A stretch of 64,000 nt of DNA from Victivallales bacterium (GCA_045114455.1 JBGUKN010000024.1:3904-67903), one strand, 5' to 3'; counted from the stretch's first letter, positions 18,860 through 62,246 are shown. The notes: generated by a model not told the origin, from the letters alone. Made by a program: numbers and translations.

Positions 18860-18897
18860 GGGTTTCGGTCGTCTCCGTGAAAAAAATGAAGTATATT

Positions 18898-18925
18898 AAT
18901 ATACACCGCTTTCCCGGAAAATCAA
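18898..18925 (-). promoter_or_regulatory. Sigma-70-like promoter for panD (TTGATT-16-TATATT)
   Basis: The minus strand reads TTGATTTTCCGGGAAAGCGGTGTATATT, about 38 nt upstream of the panD ATG. Confidence 0.5.
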
Positions 18926-19034
18926 AGAAATATGCCGTTTTCGCGGAGATGCGGCACGGGCAGCGGGGAGCCGGGTAAAAAAAGGGACGGCTTCCGCCGT
19001 CCCGAAAAAAGGAATGCAGACCCGTGTGCGGATG

Positions 19035-20237
19035 TCACTCGACCTCGACCGTGACGCTGTAGTCGGTGTTGAACTTGGAATCGGGTTCCCACGGCTGCAT
19101 GTAGGTGAGGTCGATCTTCGCCTTGCCCTTCTTCAGTGCGCGGTAGACGATGACGGTCGTGCCGCCGACGCCGACCAGGCCGTTCGGATTCCTGCCCTGC
19201 ACATAGTCGTTCCTTTCGAGCTTGAGGATGTCCTTGTCGACCTTGTCGGCCTTGGTCCAGCTGAATCCCGTGGTGGCGTTGGCATCAAGCGTGATGATGA
19301 CGGTCCCGTCGACGGCGACTTTGACGGTCTTTCCGTTGTCCTTGTCGAAGAGATGAATCTCCGCCTTCGCCGCGGCGGACGCGGCCTTGGTGTCGGCGGC
19401 GGTCGCGGCCGCGGCTTCGACTTCGACGGTCAGCTTGAACGCCTGGGCGGGCTCCTTGTCCTTTTCCCACGGACGCGCATAGCCGAGCGCGATCTCGGTC
19501 TTGCCCGGGGCGAGCGCGGTGAACGTGCAGAAATCGTTGCCGCCGACGCCGACCATGCCCGCCGGATGCTCGTCGACCTTGTATTCGACTTCGCCGGATT
19601 TGAGGACCTTCGCGTCGGTCTTGCCGGTCAGCGCCCAGGAATAGCCCGTGGTGCGGTTGGATTTGAGCTTGACGCGGATCGTGTCACCGACCTTGACCTT
19701 GAGCGTCTTGCCGTTGTCGTCCCTGGTCATCTCGTAGGTCTTCGGCGCGGCCTTCGCATCGGCCTTCGCATCGGTCGCGGGCGCGGCTTTCGCATCGGCG
19801 GCTTCCGCGACGATCTTCACGCTGAAACTGCTGACAGGGGGGGTGCCCTGCTCCCACGGACGGCCGCAGCCAAATGTAAGCTCAGTCTTGCCGGGTGCTT
19901 TCACGAGGTAGCGGAACGTCGTCTTGTCGCCGACTCTGACCATGCCGATCGGATAATCCCTCAACTTGGAATCGCGTCCTTCGGCTTCCAGCACGGTATC
20001 CGAACGGCCGGGCGTTTCGGTCCACGAATAATAGTTGTCCGCGGCGTAGCTGTCCAGTTCGACCACGATGACCTCGCCGACCTTCACCTTGACTTCCTTG
20101 TTCGCGTCGCCGGTGGTCACGCGGACCTCCACGGGTTTGTCCGGGGCGGGCAGGTTCGGTTCGAGGACTGTGTCGGCGGCGGCGAGCCGGAGCCCCGCGA
20201 ACAATGCGGCGGCGGCCAGAAGAGCGGAGTATTTCAT
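19035..20237 (-). CDS. Secreted protein with three tandem chagasin/ICP (MEROPS I42) cysteine-peptidase-inhibitor domains
   Basis: Signal peptide MKYSALLAAAALFAGLRLAAA. Domains 2 and 3 carry the three chagasin loops: SNRTTGYSW / ANATTGFSW, GMVGVGG / GLVGVGG, and ARPWE / MQPWE. Domain 1 is degenerate (DNYYSW, GMVRVGD, GRPWE). The linkers are Ala/Lys-rich. Confidence 0.8.
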   Translation of the reverse strand: MKYSALLAAAALFAGLRLAAADTVLEPNLPAPDKPVEVRVTTGDANKEVKVKVGEVIVVELDSYAADNYYSWTETPGRSDTVLEAEGRDSKLRDYPIGMVRVGDKTTFRYLVKAPGKTELTFGCGRPWEQGTPPVSSFSVKIVAEAADAKAAPATDAKADAKAAPKTYEMTRDDNGKTLKVKVGDTIRVKLKSNRTTGYSWALTGKTDAKVLKSGEVEYKVDEHPAGMVGVGGNDFCTFTALAPGKTEIALGYARPWEKDKEPAQAFKLTVEVEAAAATAADTKAASAAAKAEIHLFDKDNGKTVKVAVDGTVIITLDANATTGFSWTKADKVDKDILKLERNDYVQGRNPNGLVGVGGTTVIVYRALKKGKAKIDLTYMQPWEPDSKFNTDYSVTVEVE

Positions 20238-33528: not shown

Positions 33529-33758
33529 GGTTGCCTTCTCCTGTTTCCTGATGTTCGGAAAATGTGTTATCTGTTTAATATACTCCCTGCCGGGAAAGAA
33601 TGCAAGGCGGACAAAAAACACGCATCCGCGCGGAAACGTTTTTTCCGATGCATTTCCGGTCGCGGTCCCCGGGGCGCCGGGACGCACGGGGATGGTGTTT
33701 TTCTTTCGATATCGTTTTGCTGTTGTTTCCGTCTTTTATGTTTTTCCCTGCGCCGGTT

Positions 33759-57609: not shown

Positions 57610-57975
57610 ATGAAGATTACAGAAGACATTGTCAAAGCGCTGCACGCCTGCATCGCGGACGGCTATGATTCCGTCACCGATTTCGCCAACTGCGCCAACG
57701 TCAGCGCGAACACCATTTCCAAATACATGCGGCGCGAAACCGAGGTCATGCAGAAGGATACCTGGGAGAAACTGTATCCCCTTCTCACGGCCTATCTTCC
57801 CAAGGACGGCGACAAGGTCAAGTACGAGATCGAAATGACTGCCGACCAGAAGATCCTGCTGGATGCGTTCGACAGCCTGCCGCCGGACGTCCAGAGCCAG
57901 AAGCTCATGGAGATTATCCAGCTCGCCAAAAAGCATCTGGCCGCCGTCGAGGCCGCGAAAAACGCCGCCGACTGA
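57610..57975 (+). CDS. Small hypothetical protein with an HTH-like segment
   Basis: 121 aa. SVTDFANCANVSANTISKYMRRE resembles a Cro/C1-type HTH. It starts 27 nt after the kinase stop. Confidence 0.55.
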   Translation: MKITEDIVKALHACIADGYDSVTDFANCANVSANTISKYMRRETEVMQKDTWEKLYPLLTAYLPKDGDKVKYEIEMTADQKILLDAFDSLPPDVQSQKLMEIIQLAKKHLAAVEAAKNAAD

Positions 57976-57982
57976 TCCTTTG

Positions 57983-58720
57983 ATGCCGGATCCCGATCCC
58001 AATCCCAACCTCACGAAGTTTCTGGCGGCCTCCGGCGCCGCATCCAGACGGCATTCCGCCGAACTCGTCAAGGCCGGGCATGTGTCCGTAAACGGCGAAG
58101 TCTGCACCGACCCATCCGTCCGCATCGGGCCTGATGACCGCGTGTCGCTGGACGGAAAGGATATCGAACCTGTCCGCACATTTGTCTATGTCATGCTCCA
58201 TAAGCCGCGCGGCTATGTGTGCACCTCGGAAGACCCCCATGCCCCGAAAAAGGCCCTGGACCTGATCCGTATTCCCGGCGTCCGCCTCGTTTCCGCGGGG
58301 CGCCTTGATAAGAACAGCGAGGGGCTGATCCTCTTCTCCAATGACGGCGCCTGGATCGAAAAACTCACGCATCCGCGCCACGGCACGCGCAAGACCTATC
58401 AGGTCACGACCGACCGCCCCCTTTCCCCCGCCGACATCCGGCTCCTGACCACTTCCGGCGTGCAGGACGACGGCGAAACGCTCCGCGCTCTTTCCATCCG
58501 CGCCGAAGCACCGGGCCGCTATGTTTTCGTCCTCGGCGAGGGAAAAAACCGCGAAATCCGCCGCATGCTGGAATCGCTCGGAAACCGCACGCGCAGGCTC
58601 AAACGCATTGCGGTCGGCGGGCTTCGTCTTGGCGGGCTCCCGATGGGACAATGGCGCAAGCTCACTCCAGCTGAAGCTCAGCTTGCACTTACTTCCCGGA
58701 AACCTGTCCCCCGTGCCTGA
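57983..58720 (+). CDS. rluB: Pseudouridine synthase, RsuA/RluB family (S4 domain + catalytic domain)
   Basis: LTKFLAASGAASRRHSAELVKAGHVSVNG (S4), YVMLHKPRGYV, SAGRLDKNSEGLILFSNDG, KTYQV. Start is ATG 57983. The stop codon lies inside the first hairpin repeat unit. Confidence 0.85.
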   Translation: MPDPDPNPNLTKFLAASGAASRRHSAELVKAGHVSVNGEVCTDPSVRIGPDDRVSLDGKDIEPVRTFVYVMLHKPRGYVCTSEDPHAPKKALDLIRIPGVRLVSAGRLDKNSEGLILFSNDGAWIEKLTHPRHGTRKTYQVTTDRPLSPADIRLLTTSGVQDDGETLRALSIRAEAPGRYVFVLGEGKNREIRRMLESLGNRTRRLKRIAVGGLRLGGLPMGQWRKLTPAEAQLALTSRKPVPRA

Positions 58721-58835
58721 GCGAAGCCAGGCACTACTTAACACACTCTGTGTGTGCCTGAGCGAAGCCATGCACTACTTGACACACTCCGTGTGTGCGC
58801 GAGCGTAGCCGCGCACTGCCCGACACACCGCAAGC
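58713..58835 (+). repeat. Three tandem ~41-bp units, each a GTGC-N3-GCGNAGC-N3-GCAC hairpin plus an ACACAC-TCT-GTGTGT hairpin
   Basis: Unit 1 is GTGCCTGAGCGAAGCCAGGCACTACTTAACACACTCTGTGT (58713). Unit 2 is GTGCCTGAGCGAAGCCATGCACTACTTGACACACTCCGTGT (58754). Unit 3 is the degenerate GTGCGCGAGCGTAGCCGCGCACTGCCCGACACACC (58795). Confidence 0.9.
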
Positions 58836-58847
58836 GGTACTGATACA

Positions 58848-58869
58848 GTGCTCTGCTTCGCGAGAGCAC
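58848..58869 (-). repeat. Inverted single copy of the hairpin repeat
   Basis: GTGCTCT-GCTTCGCG-AGAGCAC; the loop is the reverse complement of CGCGAAGC. Confidence 0.75.
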
Positions 58870-58886
58870 GCATCACAGCGAAAATC

Positions 58887-58952
58887 GTGCCTGAGCGTAG
58901 CCGGGCACTACTTGGTGGAGGCGTTCGCCTCCCAGTGGAGGCGTTCGCCTCC
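58887..58952 (+). repeat. Bipartite repeat element (hairpin 1 plus a duplicated GGAGGC/GCCTCC hairpin 2)
   Basis: GTGCCTG-AGCGTAGC-CGGGCAC, then TACTTG, then GTGGAGGCGTTCGCCTCCC and AGTGGAGGCGTTCGCCTCCC. Confidence 0.85.
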
Positions 58953-58970
58953 CTTTTTTCGTATTTTTTT
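58937..58970 (+). terminator. Likely rho-independent terminator of rluB
   Basis: The last GGAGGCG-TT-CGCCTCC hairpin is followed by CTTTTTTCGTATTTTTTT. Confidence 0.6.
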
Positions 58971-59031
58971 CCGGTTTCAGTTTGCATTTTTCAGCCACGG
59001 GGTGTATATTAAGTTTCATGCAAGAAATTGC

Positions 59032-59108
59032 GGGGGCGTAGCTCAACTGGTTAGAGTGCCACCCTGTCACGGTGGATGTTGCGGGTTCGAATCCCGTCGC
59101 TCTCGCCA
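59032..59108 (+). tRNA. tRNA-Asp (anticodon GUC), CCA encoded
   Basis: Hand-folded cloverleaf. The acceptor stem pairs GGGGGCG with CGCTCTC (two G-U pairs). The D arm is GCTC-AACTGGTTA-GAGT. The anticodon arm is CCACC-CTGTCAC-GGTGG with GTC in the anticodon position. The T arm is GCGGG-TTCGAAT-CCCGT, followed by discriminator G and CCA. Confidence 0.9.
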
Positions 59109-59157
59109 TTTTTGTATCTGCACAGTACAAAATGGCGTTTTTTTATGTCTTGAATCC

Positions 59158-59205
59158 GTGCCGTCGCGAAGCACGGCACAACCGCAGCGGAGGCACTGCC
59201 TCCCC
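59158..59205 (+). repeat. Bipartite hairpin repeat element between tRNA-Asp and xerD
   Basis: GTGCCGT-CGCGAAGC-ACGGCAC, then AACCGCA, then GCGGAGGC-ACT-GCCTCCCC. It ends 10 nt before the xerD ATG. Confidence 0.85.
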
Positions 59206-59214
59206 GGGGGGCGC

Positions 59215-60111
59215 ATGGAAAAGATCCTTCAACATTTCATCGGCTATCTGACGGCCGAACGCGGCCTCAGCCGGAATTCCACCGCCGCCTATTCCTCCGA
59301 CCTCGAAGACTATGTCCACTGGCTTCGCGCGCAGGGCATCGAGTCGTTCGACGCCGCCGGACGCGATGCGATCATCGACTACCTCGAATACTGCCGCGAC
59401 GAGCGCACACTGGAGACAGTCAGCATCGCGCGCCGTCTGGTCGCGATCAAGATCCTGTACCGCTATCTTTTCCGCGAACGCCTGATCGCCGCGGACGTGA
59501 CGGACGTGATGGATTCGCCGAAATTCTGGCGCATCCTGCCGGATTTCCTGAATGTGGCAGAGGTCGACGCCCTGCTCAACGCGTTTCCCGTGAAGGCGCA
59601 GGACCCGCTCGCGATCCGCAACCGCTGCATCCTGGAGCTGCTGTATTCCTGCGGGCTCCGCGTCAGCGAATGCGTGAACCTGCGTTTCGGCTCCGTCCGC
59701 TTTGACGAACGCACCATCCGTGTGCTCGGCAAGGGCTCCAAGGAACGCATCGTGCCGATGGGCGACGCCGCGATCCGCCAGCTGAAACGCTATCTGGAGA
59801 AAGCCCGGCCCGAACTCGCCGGGGACGGAACCGCGCCCCAGCTTTTCCTGTCCAACCACGGCCGCAAGCTCGACCGCGAACGCATCTGGATGGTCGTGAA
59901 GGAGGCCGCGCGCATCGCCGGGATCACGAAGAACATCCACCCTCACACGCTCCGGCATTCCTTCGCCAGCCATCTGCTCGAAAACGGCGCCGACCTGCGC
60001 GTGATCCAGGAGATGCTCGGGCATGCCGACATCAGCACCACGCAGATCTACACGCACGTCGACGAGAACCGCCTGCTCGGCGTCTTCAACAAGTTCCACC
60101 CGAGAGCCTGA
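59215..60111 (+). CDS. xerD: Tyrosine recombinase XerD
   Basis: FIGYLTAERGLSRNSTAAYSSDLEDY, LLYSCGLRVSECVNL, GKGSKERIVPMG, HTLRHSFASHLLENGADLRVIQEMLGHADISTTQIYTHV, with the C-terminus HPRA. Start is ATG 59215. Confidence 0.9.
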   Translation: MEKILQHFIGYLTAERGLSRNSTAAYSSDLEDYVHWLRAQGIESFDAAGRDAIIDYLEYCRDERTLETVSIARRLVAIKILYRYLFRERLIAADVTDVMDSPKFWRILPDFLNVAEVDALLNAFPVKAQDPLAIRNRCILELLYSCGLRVSECVNLRFGSVRFDERTIRVLGKGSKERIVPMGDAAIRQLKRYLEKARPELAGDGTAPQLFLSNHGRKLDRERIWMVVKEAARIAGITKNIHPHTLRHSFASHLLENGADLRVIQEMLGHADISTTQIYTHVDENRLLGVFNKFHPRA

Positions 60112-60113
60112 TT

Positions 60114-61202
60114 ATGAAGCTGAAAGAATTCCTCAACACCCCCATCCGCCGCATGGTCGCCCGCAACATCGCGCTGTCGCTGGTCGTCGGCATCTGCCTG
60201 CTGTATGTGGCGCTGCGCGATTCCCGCCGGATGCACTCCGAGACTGTCATGTTCTCCACCATGAGTACGTTCGGGACGGTCAGCCTGGCGCATCAGGAGA
60301 AAATGACGCTCAGCAATGCCCTGACGGCGGCGCACGAGGCAGTCCGCGAGGTGGAGAAGACCTGCAACATCTTCGATCCGGAAAGCGAACTTGCCAGGCT
60401 TAACGCGACCGCCGCGGACGAGCCGTTCGCGTGTTCGGACCTGCTGTGGGATGTGCTTGCGCAGGCGCGGGCGTTCTGGCGCGATTCAGGCGGTGCGTTC
60501 GATGTGACGATCGATCCGCTGATGAAGCTCTGGGGATTCCACAGCAAACGCGAGACGCTGCCGTCCGAGGCGGAGATCGCCGAGGCCAAGCAGCGCACCG
60601 GGCTTGACAAGGTCGTGTTCGACGACGCAAAGCATACCGTGAAGTTCTCCGTGCCCGGCATGTCGATCAACCTCGGCGGCATCGCCAAGGGCTACGCGCT
60701 CGACCGCGCCGCGGACGCCGTCCGCGCGCTCGGCGTGAAGACCGGCTGGATCGAAATCGGCGGCAATATCCTGGCGCTTCCGAAGAAGTCCGGCGGCGGC
60801 AAATACGCAGCGGGCATCCGGAATCCGTTCGACAAGGAGACTCTCCTCGGCAGGACCACGCTTTCCGACGCCGCGGTCAGCACCAGCGGCAACTACGAAC
60901 GCTATGTGGTCATCGACGGCAGGCAGTACACGCACATCATCGATCCTGCGACCGGGCTGCCCGTGGCCGACATGGATTCCGTTTCCGTGATCGTGCCCGC
61001 CGGGCTGAACGTCCCGCCGGGAGTTGCCTCGGACGCCCTTTCCACCTCGATCTTCATCGCCGGGCCGGACGCCGTGGCTGGCTGGACGAAGAAGTTCCCC
61101 GGACTGCGCGTGCTGATCGTGCGCGGTCCCGCCGACAAGCCGGAGATACTGAAATACGGCAAAGGCTGGGGCGAAATCCCGTCGAAACTCCCGCCGAAAT
61201 AA
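60114..61202 (+). CDS. apbE: FAD:protein FMN transferase ApbE
   Basis: GGAFDVTIDPLMKLWGF, INLGGIAKGYALD, VSTSGNYERY, HIIDPATG, SDALSTSIF. There is an N-terminal membrane anchor. Confidence 0.9.
   Translation: MKLKEFLNTPIRRMVARNIALSLVVGICLLYVALRDSRRMHSETVMFSTMSTFGTVSLAHQEKMTLSNALTAAHEAVREVEKTCNIFDPESELARLNATAADEPFACSDLLWDVLAQARAFWRDSGGAFDVTIDPLMKLWGFHSKRETLPSEAEIAEAKQRTGLDKVVFDDAKHTVKFSVPGMSINLGGIAKGYALDRAADAVRALGVKTGWIEIGGNILALPKKSGGGKYAAGIRNPFDKETLLGRTTLSDAAVSTSGNYERYVVIDGRQYTHIIDPATGLPVADMDSVSVIVPAGLNVPPGVASDALSTSIFIAGPDAVAGWTKKFPGLRVLIVRGPADKPEILKYGKGWGEIPSKLPPK
61157..61184 (+). repeat. Copy 1 (inside the apbE 3' end) of a 28-bp perfect direct repeat
   Basis: CGGCAAAGGCTGGGGCGAAATCCCGTCG encodes GKGWGEIPS in apbE. 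Confidence 0.9.
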
Positions 61203-61219
61203 AAAAACCTCTTTTTTTC

Positions 61220-61266
61220 GTGCACGAGCGAAGCCGTGCACTGCAACAGTGGAGGCTCAGCCTCCC
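61220..61266 (+). repeat. Bipartite hairpin repeat element just after the apbE stop
   Basis: GTGCACG-AGCGAAGC-CGTGCAC, then TGCAACA, then GTGGAGGC-TCA-GCCTCCC. Confidence 0.85.
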
Positions 61267-61293
61267 GGCAAAGGCTGGGGCGAAATCCCGTCG
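61266..61293 (+). repeat. Copy 2 of the 28-bp direct repeat (relic apbE 3' end)
   Basis: An identical 28-mer 109 bp downstream of copy 1. Read in the apbE frame it continues GKGWGEIPSDIPPQ-stop, against GKGWGEIPSKLPPK-stop in the live gene. Confidence 0.9.
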
Positions 61294-61320
61294 GATATTC
61301 CGCCTCAGTAATTTCTCTTC

Positions 61321-61368
61321 GTGCCGTCGCGCAGCACGGCACTGTATTAGTGGAGGCTATGCCTCCCC
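61321..61368 (+). repeat. Bipartite hairpin repeat element abutting the traX-family stop codon
   Basis: GTGCCGT-CGCGCAGC-ACGGCAC, then TGTATTA, then GTGGAGGC-TAT-GCCTCCCC. Confidence 0.85.
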
Positions 61369-61370
61369 TC

Positions 61371-62192
61371 CTAGAAGTAATAGGTCGGGAGCAGATGGTT
61401 GGCCCGGAGAATGCCCAGGATCAGCAGGTGCAGCGGGTAGTAGACGTAGAAGAACCACTTCATGAACGCGTTGAACGCCGGGTTCGGGCCGCGTTTGCCG
61501 TTGTACAGCGCCAGGATCGGGATCGCCAGCACCACGGAGAGCTGCAGGAACGAGTACGTCAGGTTGGTCGACGGGAACAGGAATCCGAACATGCCCACGT
61601 AGAAGATCAGCCAGAGCGTCTGCTTCAGCAGATGCCCGCGGTTCGTTCCGAAGCTCAGCACCAGCACGGACGCCGTGCAGCTCCAGTCGCCGGGGAAACT
61701 CACCACGCAGATCAGGCAGATCAGCAGCGTCTTCAGCCACGCGCTCCGGATGCGCTCCGAATACTCCACGCGGAGCATCACCAGGCCCCACGCCAGCGTC
61801 CAGATCACGCTCGTCTGACTGTGCAGGCATGCGGCATTCAGAAACGAAATGTCGCGGAACCGGATCGCCTGCCATATCCCGCTGTAGTAGAGCGGCACGA
61901 ACGGGCGCCAGTCGCTGAACCCGTTCCATTCCGAGACGTATGCGAAATGCGAGATTAGCGCGAAGAGGAACATGCGGAACATGTATTTGTTGACGTTCCG
62001 CGTGTGGAAGAATCCCTCCGCCACGAAGAAGCACATCGTCGGCATCGTGATGCGCCCGATGATGTGCATCAGCTCCGGCTTCCAGTTCAGCGCACACCCG
62101 GGGTAGATCGCCCACGCGATATGGTCGATCGTCATGGCGATGATCGCGATCAGCTTGATCGCGTTCGCATCCAGTATTTTGCAGTTTTTCAT
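61371..62192 (-). CDS. TraX family membrane protein
   Basis: MKNCKILDANAIKLIAIIAMTIDHIAWAIYPG..., multiple TM segments, and FYVYYPLHLLILGIL near the C-terminus. Confidence 0.75.
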   Translation of the reverse strand: MKNCKILDANAIKLIAIIAMTIDHIAWAIYPGCALNWKPELMHIIGRITMPTMCFFVAEGFFHTRNVNKYMFRMFLFALISHFAYVSEWNGFSDWRPFVPLYYSGIWQAIRFRDISFLNAACLHSQTSVIWTLAWGLVMLRVEYSERIRSAWLKTLLICLICVVSFPGDWSCTASVLVLSFGTNRGHLLKQTLWLIFYVGMFGFLFPSTNLTYSFLQLSVVLAIPILALYNGKRGPNPAFNAFMKWFFYVYYPLHLLILGILRANHLLPTYYF

Positions 62193-62198
62193 GCCGCG

Positions 62199-62246
62199 TT
62201 ACCCCGCCATTTGCACCGCCAATTACACCGCCAATTACACCGCCAA
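62199..62246. repeat. Four tandem 12-bp repeats (TTRCMCCGCCAW) abutting the traX-family start codon
   Basis: TTACCCCGCCAT TTGCACCGCCAA TTACACCGCCAA TTACACCGCCAA. The minus strand reads TTGGCGGTGTAA and so on, ending 6 nt before the ATG at 62192. Confidence 0.9.

Follow-up and report, generated by a model that had tools for sequence, protein, structure and literature searches.

The stretch of DNA analysed here (the window) comprises 64,000 nt from a Victivallales bacterium (GCA_045114455.1 JBGUKN010000024.1:3904-67903), of which positions 58400-61700 were read in detail. The genes of this region are those for a pseudouridine synthase resembling RluB, tRNA-Asp, a XerC/D-type recombinase of 298 aa, ApbE and, in convergent orientation, TraX, and the sequence between them carries a series of small hairpins that are the subject of this report. 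Hairpin 1 (hp1) is 22 nt in length (GTGC-N3-[A/C]-GCGNAGC-N3'-GCAC) and is present in eight copies, seven of them on the plus strand. All eight had been listed in an earlier note on this DNA and were recovered here with 0 mismatches to the pattern GTGCNNNMGCGNAGCNNNGCAC; shuffled sequence gives an expectation of 0.04 copies in the window, and 0 of 100 shuffles attained eight. The consensus as written in that note carries an extra [C/A] after AGC, which makes it one base too long; taken literally it matches no copy, because this [C/A] is the first base of N3'. A second hairpin (hp2; GGAGGC, 3-4 nt, GCCTCC) occurs five times. It trails four hp1 copies rather than five, as previously counted, because two of the five hp2 stand together as a tandem pair. 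In agreement with the impression gained by eye, no further hp1 was found in the 64 kb, either with up to four substitutions or at any GCGNAGC core with a flanking stem, and a relaxed search of the 64 kb found no other hp2. Searching 58300-61800 against Rfam 15 (E <= 5) returned the tRNA-Asp as the sole match, and the hairpins match no curated covariance model.

Five of the hp1 copies form a cluster at 58713-58952. It opens with an array of three 41-nt units on the plus strand (58713-58817), in which hp1 copy 1 (58713-58734, inner stem CTG/CAG), copy 2 (58754-58775, CTG/CAT with one C/T mismatch) and copy 3 (58795-58816, GCG/CGC) alternate with a third hairpin, hp3, also on the plus strand. The first hp3 (58741-58755, ACACAC-TCT-GTGTGT) overlaps the next hp1 by 2 nt, and the second (58782-58796, ACACAC-TCC-GTGTGT) lies between copies 2 and 3. 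An inverted unit follows on the minus strand, with its hp3 at 58826-58839 (TACCGC-TT-GCGGTG as read on that strand) and hp1 copy 4 at 58848-58869 (TCT/AGA, bulge C). Copy 5, again on the plus strand (58887-58908, CTG/CGG with a T-G wobble), is trailed by the tandem hp2 pair (58917-58932 and 58937-58952, plus strand; GGAGGC-GTTC-GCCTCC with a 20-nt period). Copies 6 to 8 each belong to a bipartite unit of hp1, linker and hp2 on the plus strand. The first lies between the tRNA-Asp terminator and xerD (59158-59203; hp1 CGT/ACG with bulge C, linker AACCGCAGC, hp2 at 59189-59203), the second 17 nt past the apbE stop codon (61220-61265; hp1 ACG/CGT, linker TGCAACAGT, hp2 at 61251-61265). The third (61321-61366; hp1 CGT/ACG with loop GCA, linker TGTATTAGT, hp2 at 61352-61366) stops 4 nt short of the stop codon of traX (61371-62192, minus strand). 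The inner-stem variants agree with the list in the earlier note; those of copy 2 (mismatch) and copy 5 (wobble) are imperfect.

A strict bipartite pattern (hp1, 3-12 nt, GGAGGC) was searched in one genome per species for 185,579 species and matched 110 blocks of 8 kb. About 85 of these blocks fall in 13 species-level metagenome-assembled genomes (MAGs) from the rumen, labelled Lentisphaeria, Victivallales or uncultured bacterium, with 2-12 blocks per MAG; the remaining matches are due to chance or to a different, GTAG-tagged repetitive extragenic palindrome (REP). The genome-wide scan that the earlier note had proposed therefore does find further copies, and they are many and dispersed within each genome, as is typical of REPs. 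The clustering around tRNA-Asp, xerD and apbE to which the note had drawn attention is incidental, as the family adjoins hundreds of unrelated genes. The carrier clade belongs to the phylum Lentisphaerota of the Planctomycetes-Verrucomicrobia-Chlamydiae (PVC) group. In metagenomes the hp1-only pattern gave at least 120 matches, mostly on rumen contigs among the matches listed, and one Logan contig encodes a XerD identical to that of the window together with the window's last three units. The repeat family is lineage-specific, its carriers being uncultured Lentisphaeria of the rumen (order Victivallales) that form a clade of genus-to-family level, and no report linking Lentisphaerae (Lentisphaerota) with REPs was found in the literature searched. 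A typical unit was also seen at L057:7634-7668, at the end of a 7.7-kb buffalo rumen contig that is binned as Erysipelotrichaceae and is probably misbinned Lentisphaeria. Several arrays lie at contig ends (L055, L084, L087), which indicates that the repeats break assemblies.

Across these genomes, hp1 folds into a 7-bp stem with a nearly fixed outer GTGC/GCAC, above which come a single bulged base (A or C), two G-C pairs and the G-N-A triloop, and is a short, GC-rich, imperfect palindrome as REPs are in the broad sense. An outer-stem variant with compensatory changes (GTGT...ACAC) also exists. In keeping with the proposal that GCGNAGC forms a G-N-A triloop, the G and A of the loop are about 92% conserved and the N is free (A 43%, G 24%, T 18%, C 16%); d(GCGAAGC) is classically a very stable DNA mini-hairpin. 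A 9-nt linker ([T/A][A/G]CCGCAGT) leads from hp1 to hp2, which has a 6-7-bp stem and a 3-4-nt loop. Within tandem arrays, hp3 (a short linker plus CAC-N3-TT/TCY-N3'-GTG) stands in for the linker and hp2 and shares 1-2 nt with the next hp1. Arrays of hp1 and hp3 have a period of 41-43 nt and those of hp1 and hp2 a period of 48 nt; overall, another hairpin begins 3-13 nt after hp1 in 229 of 248 full-stem copies. In the window, hp1 and hp2 are predicted to fold on either strand, whether modelled as RNA or as DNA (z-scores of -2 to -4.9).

The three inner stem positions of hp1, which the search patterns left unconstrained, are all paired in 121 of the 131 exact-pattern copies (92%), a set that comes from 710 kb sampled in the 13 MAGs together with the window and does not represent genome totals. 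Ten Watson-Crick inner-stem variants are found, eight of which recur across several genomes. Among the 41 distinct hp1 sequences, 96% of cells are paired and 42 cells are changed on both sides, compared with 13.2 in shuffles; 0 of 500 shuffles attained 42, and slid registers collapse. In a set of 64 distinct hp2 sequences chosen on hp1 alone, pairing reaches 98.2% against a null of 78.5% (1000 shuffles, maximum 82.6%). These hp2 have 20 different 5' arms, each with a matching 3' arm, and the third pair (A-T) is the only invariant one. The hp3 stem covaries as well. Pairing in all three stems is kept through compensatory changes, which upholds the claim of the earlier note that structure rather than sequence is preserved. 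Part of the covariation signal in hp1 is subfamily structure, since position 7, the bulge and position 16 vary jointly (G/A/C 86 times, T/C/A 38 times, mixed forms almost nil). Moreover, the stem subfamily can switch at orthologous sites, for example at the unit by the traX stop and at a unit by a gene ending FFVNM*. Such a switch needs about five coordinated changes and so looks like copy replacement or gene conversion, not stepwise compensation in place. In one form of hp1 the innermost stem pair is thus G-C and the bulge is A, in the other the pair is T-A and the bulge C; the two may represent two recognition classes or two master lineages.

The variety of hp2 arms bears on the suggestion, made in the earlier note, that hp2 is a self-paired Shine-Dalgarno (SD)/anti-SD mimic which sequesters or supplies ribosome-binding sites. 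GGAGGC/GCCTCC is indeed the most frequent hp2, and at one locus (L107) the hp2 5' arm GGAGG lies 10 nt ahead of an ATG, in place of the native SD sequence GGAGGGGGAG of relatives. However, GGAGGC/GCCTCC is present only in some lineages, and GGAGG-type arms make up only about half of the distinct hp2 sequences; the others include CCAGGC/GCCTGG, TGAGGC/GCCTCA, CAAGGAC/GTCCTTG, GCAGGC/GCCTGC and GAAAGC/GCTTTC. It is the hairpin that is kept, and not the SD sequence. As only four copies lie between divergent genes and most are at gene 3' ends, we consider a role of hp2 as an SD mimic highly improbable.

Comparison of orthologous sites showed that units come and go between close relatives. The five-copy cluster at 58713-58952 is absent in RGIG6864 and RUG12541, the closest relatives, and at other orthologous sites one genome carries a unit that its relatives lack. 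The unit by xerD, 11 nt upstream of the start codon, is kept in five relatives (RGIG6864, RUG10770, RUG12414, RUG12541 and a contig from a rumen metagenome), and the unit at the traX stop is kept in at least six, with differing stem variants. The number of units in arrays differs between strains, and a search of near-identical (>=93%) filled and empty pairs for exact boundaries returned only unit-number changes within arrays. At apbE, the 3' tail of the gene occurs twice in the window (61158-61202 and, between two bipartite units, 61268-61311; plus strand). The first 27 nt of the two tails are identical and the rest has diverged, both read GKGWGEIPS…*, and each is followed by its own hp1 and hp2 with a different stem variant. 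RUG12541 carries two units at this site and no tail duplication. The duplication suggests unequal recombination between alleles through the repeats. Taken together, the family is dispersed and multi-copy, is found mainly at gene 3' ends, is gained and lost between close relatives and forms arrays that vary in unit number. The hairpins are therefore very probably copies of a previously undescribed REP-type family of small, non-coding, modular palindromic repeats in rumen Lentisphaeria.

The genes on either side are convergent for 74 copies, tandem for 58 (29 + 29) and divergent for 4. As in REP families, the copies are extragenic and mainly downstream of genes, with the exception of one intragenic locus where they are in frame. 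Among 105 bipartite units, 26-31 have an hp2 whose end is only 0-5 nt away from the stop codon of a gene on the opposite strand, and units often stand directly 3' of a native terminator T-run. The 5' flank of the first hp1 of an array is pyrimidine-rich, with C (59%) or T (35%) at position -1 and G at 3-10% over positions -4 to -1.

This strong enrichment at gene 3' ends would also be expected if the units were primarily functional RNA 3'-end elements, such as terminators or exonuclease blocks, whose spread and covariation reflected selection and not mobility. At two orthologous sites a unit takes the exact place of the native hairpin of relatives, just before a conserved T-run. An ordinary terminator (GGGACGG…CCGTCCC followed by a T-run) stands at 18911-19039 in the window where RGIG6864 has a three-hairpin repeat array (L003:4761-4852). 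The second hp2 of the tandem pair (58937-58952) is followed by a T-run (58954-58972), and this terminator-like shape scores as a terminator; the T-run is present also in relatives without the repeats. In addition, the orthologous copies by xerD and at the traX stop are intact across 5-6 species despite diverged flanks. On the other hand, a T-run follows only 8 of 96 non-redundant terminal hp2 copies, and the commonest arrangement puts the reverse complement of the unit into the mRNA, followed by a purine-rich and not a U-rich tract. Moreover, units that lie in frame within a helicase gene (described below) must be read through. The common linker, the arrays and the presence/absence polymorphism argue for copying of units and not for independent evolution of terminators. 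We therefore regard RNA 3'-end function as an unlikely primary explanation of the family. A role as terminator or stabiliser is likely for some copies and is excluded as a general rule.

Several insertions have altered the genes that they adjoin. In the window, the RluB-like open reading frame (ORF; 57863-58720, ending …KPVPRA*) takes its TGA stop and the two codons before it from hp1 copy 1; in relatives that lack the array, the pseudouridine synthase ends …KPVRGKSGSPD* or …SQNAASRGGMKRDAAP*. An HrpB-type helicase ORF contains 2-4 in-frame 48-nt units in six related genomes (seven loci: L023:5321-5463, L051:583-724, L062:4474-4570, L064, L090, L095 and L126), and the unit number varies among them. 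These units fall between the HA2 (HA2_C) and HrpB_C domains and encode RAGAKPGTAAVEDLSS-like repeats of 16 residues per unit. The placement of copies on leading or lagging strands could not be assigned, the GC skew of the window being too noisy. Two further observations concern other sequences of the window. The motif GGTGTATATTAA occurs three times in the window (59001-59012, plus; 18896-18907, minus; 33575-33586, minus) where 0.01 would be expected; its sites immediately precede tRNA-Asp and other genes, and the motif is kept in relatives and is probably the -10 region of a local promoter type. At 62199-62246, four tandem copies of a 12-bp repeat (TTACACCGCCAA) stand immediately upstream of the start of traX, and the TraX ORF as called in RUG12541 opens with repeated peptides.

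A small, non-coding, multi-copy and insertion-polymorphic element could in principle be a MITE (a miniature transposable element with inverted repeats), that is, a deletion derivative of an insertion sequence (IS) moved by a classical DDE transposase, and the earlier note had described the family as MITE-like. No terminal inverted repeats were seen at the unit ends beyond the internal hairpins, and no target-sequence duplication was visible at filled compared with empty sites, where divergence of the junctions precludes testing to the base. The unit is only 41-48 nt long. Nor did a recurring transposase family appear in the neighbourhood: the 552 neighbouring ORFs form 340 clusters, among which the enrichment showed only commonplace genes (TraX, HrpB, XerD, ApbE, glycoside hydrolases and repeat proteins of the adhesin-like kind), and no transposase-like protein was present in the 16 largest clusters, which are those that were inspected. 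A MITE origin is therefore very doubtful.

The unit upstream of xerD, with its retention in related genomes, raises the question of whether the hairpins are sites for the adjacent XerD-like recombinase, of the attC type or of the folded single-stranded type used by CTX phage. The substrates presented by attC sites and by the CTX attP are of this kind, namely bulged hairpins. However, the family occupies more than 100 other loci with no recombinase nearby, it has no dif-like ATAA-N6-TTAT core, and the protein is an ordinary 298-aa member of the XerC/D type in a conserved tRNA-Asp/xerD/apbE neighbourhood. We find this explanation scarcely credible. Readings of the repeats as a CRISPR array, dif/Xer sites, attC sites or DNA-uptake sequences were dropped on account of the repeat structure, the absence of the defining motifs and the variable stem sequence. 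As for CRISPR in particular, the spacers between hp1 copies consist of the repeated hairpin hp3 at a period of 41-43 nt.

Among known repeats, the REPs and bacterial interspersed mosaic elements (BIMEs) of Enterobacteria and Pseudomonas, which belong to the GTAG superfamily and are associated with REP-associated tyrosine transposases (RAYT, or TnpA-REP), are among the closest in character. They are likewise GC-rich imperfect palindromes of 20-40 nt in many copies, located at gene 3' ends and near stop codons, in clusters with conserved linkers and with a bulge that distinguishes the strands. The Lentisphaeria family differs in having no conserved GTAG tag, a mostly head-to-tail arrangement, the additional modules hp2 and hp3, and no RAYT near about 250 copies. 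The GTAG-tagged REPs of cyanobacteria (Nodosilinea, Phormidesmis, CCP3) and Stutzerimonas urumqiensis share with hp1 the GTGC/GCAC outer stem, a 3-bp inner stem, a bulged C/A and the GCGNAGC mini-hairpin. Five filamentous cyanobacteria and S. urumqiensis carry it in the form GTAGG-GTGCATT[C/A]GCGNAGCAATGCAC-C. In these REPs, by contrast, the inner stem is fixed as ATT/AAT, a GTAGG tag precedes the hairpin, and the linker and hp2 are lacking. At one such locus (L067:672-1330), a GTAG-tagged REP precedes, by 85 nt, a gene for a RAYT of 164 aa (E = 6e-41 to the RayT of Escherichia coli), with a degenerate inverted REP copy just downstream. Since a REP with the architecture of hp1 flanks a RAYT gene here, the hp1 design is one that RAYT systems use. 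Common descent of hp1 and the GTAG-tagged REP is not shown by this likeness, because the search pattern imposed the shared positions. A near-identical GTAG-tagged REP, GTAGGGTGCATTCGCGNAGCAATGCACC, was seen in L067, L012, L035, L058, L063, L068 and L089 (cyanobacteria and S. urumqiensis); its presence in more than one phylum suggests that a REP-RAYT pair was transferred horizontally.

Other repeat families resemble the Lentisphaeria units in part. BOX elements of Streptococcus pneumoniae are modular (A-Bn-C), structured and intergenic, with an internal module in tandem and in variable number. The modular build and variable-number tandem module are thus shared, whereas the modules of BOX have a greater length (45-59 nt), a higher AT content and no sequence relationship to the present ones, and BOX ends form terminal inverted repeats. 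Rickettsia palindromic elements (RPE) are 100-150 nt long, mostly intragenic and able to sit in frame in coding genes. The in-frame units of the hrpB-type helicase (16 codons each) are comparable, whereas the Lentisphaeria family is mostly intergenic. The subterminal hairpins of IS200/IS605 elements are likewise imperfect and are read on one DNA strand, and insertion takes place beside a short flanking motif; in the Lentisphaeria family the 5' flank of hp1 has C or T at position -1 in 94%. Here, however, no transposase gene lies between hairpins, and the target motif is a tendency and not a defined tetranucleotide. CGTC-tagged REPs have no dedicated transposase gene flanked by repeats, and intragenic copies of them occur (PMC3733652). 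In this respect the CGTC-tagged REPs of alpha-proteobacteria, Neisseria (dRS3) and Rickettsia (RPE-4/6) resemble the present family. They differ in stems, loops and tags, and CGTC is found here only inside the stem of one subfamily.

Five observations weigh against assignment to the REP class or against the mode of spread that such an assignment implies. Firstly, a search for RAYT (PF01797) and Y1 transposases around about 250 copies was negative for the window, for the MAG loci (710 kb) and for the metagenome loci (806 kb). This search covered about 12,700 ORFs in the 1.5 Mb around copies and used phmmer with E. coli and cyanobacterial RAYTs as well as a hidden Markov model (HMM) built from 120 RAYT sequences and run with --max, for which the positive control L067 gave E = 7.6e-87. 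The RAYT or IS200/IS605 TnpA partner for which the earlier note had suggested looking was thus not found in the sequence searched around the copies, and in a broad protein search for RAYT relatives the best 120 of 7,835 matches were all cyanobacterial or enterobacterial proteins. Secondly, the units have no conserved unpaired GTAG or CGTC terminal tag of the kind that defines the GTAG and CGTC superfamilies (Di Nocera 2013). The 5' flank of hp1 is YYCC, and the reverse-strand tetranucleotide G[T/C][A/T]G overlaps the stem and reads GTAG, GCAG or GTTG according to the linker, GTAG appearing only where the linker begins TAC. Thirdly, adjacent hp1 pairs have the same orientation in 51 cases and opposite orientation in 14. 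This head-to-tail arrangement is unusual for REP families (PMC3733652) and departs from the inverted, alternating pairing of BIMEs and REPINs (REP doublets forming hairpins); of the earlier designation as REP/BIME-type, the REP part stands for a dispersed family and the strict BIME part does not. Fourthly, the diverged intergenic flanks leave exact insertion boundaries and the target site undefined. Finally, nearest-neighbour energies are similar on both strands, and the molecule whose fold matters may be DNA or RNA. The family is not a new kind of system but a new example of the REP/BIME-like class.

For this REP-type family we propose that units spread through a single-stranded DNA (ssDNA) intermediate, in which the strand bearing GCGNAGC would fold and a structure-specific HUH/Y1 enzyme (RAYT-like) would recognise the fold. 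Only variants that still pair would propagate, which would give rise to the covariation; dependence of propagation on the folded unit is proposed because it is the simplest route to many paired and few unpaired variants. An ssDNA intermediate is favoured since the two strands are told apart by the bulge, which is on one side only, and by the conserved G and A in the triloop, a difference that ssDNA-reading HUH enzymes exploit, and since the d(GCGAAGC) mini-hairpin is so stable as DNA. That such an intermediate is combined with a RAYT-like enzyme encoded elsewhere in the genome is a serious candidate explanation, to which we give somewhat less than an even chance. Head-to-tail arrays would lengthen through slippage or unequal recombination, and perhaps also when a unit inserts beside the CCTCC-like end of a resident one; unequal recombination is suggested because the unit-number indel falls between equivalent positions of neighbouring units. 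Resident copies may then be tolerated or reused as RNA 3'-end hairpins, a minority of them as terminators. According to Liang et al. 2015, as described in PMC12306157, REPs of E. coli that lie no more than 15 nt from a stop codon cause ribosomes to stall and reduce translation of the upstream gene. The many copies located 0-5 nt past a stop codon would lie where, on that description, E. coli REPs affect translation. A more tentative version of the proposal is one that we consider rather unlikely to hold: spread would be independent of RAYT, with a structure-specific activity copying folded units beside YCC/CCTCC-like motifs, including the CCTCC ends of resident units. If true, this would account for the unusual head-to-tail arrays, would amount to a rewriting of gene ends (stop codons, terminators, Shine-Dalgarno sequences and in-frame ORF insertion), and would make the two hp1 classes (G-C/bulge A and T-A/bulge C) two recognition specificities.

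REP-type repeats help to mould the genomes of bacteria: they punctuate operons, stabilise or terminate transcripts, and offer sites for recombination and for IS insertion. Nearly all work on them concerns Proteobacteria and cyanobacteria, and the present family extends the class to Lentisphaerota. It is unusual for a REP family in its three modules, its head-to-tail arrays, the lack of a tag and the lack of a partner found. With three hairpins and dozens of compensatory variants, it provides an unusually clean natural data set of structure-preserving variation. Its effects on genes are concrete, and include the stop codon that a pseudouridine synthase has gained, terminators that units have replaced and peptide repeats added in frame to a helicase. 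For the rumen Lentisphaeria that carry it, the arrays fragment MAG assemblies, and the family is usable as a lineage marker.

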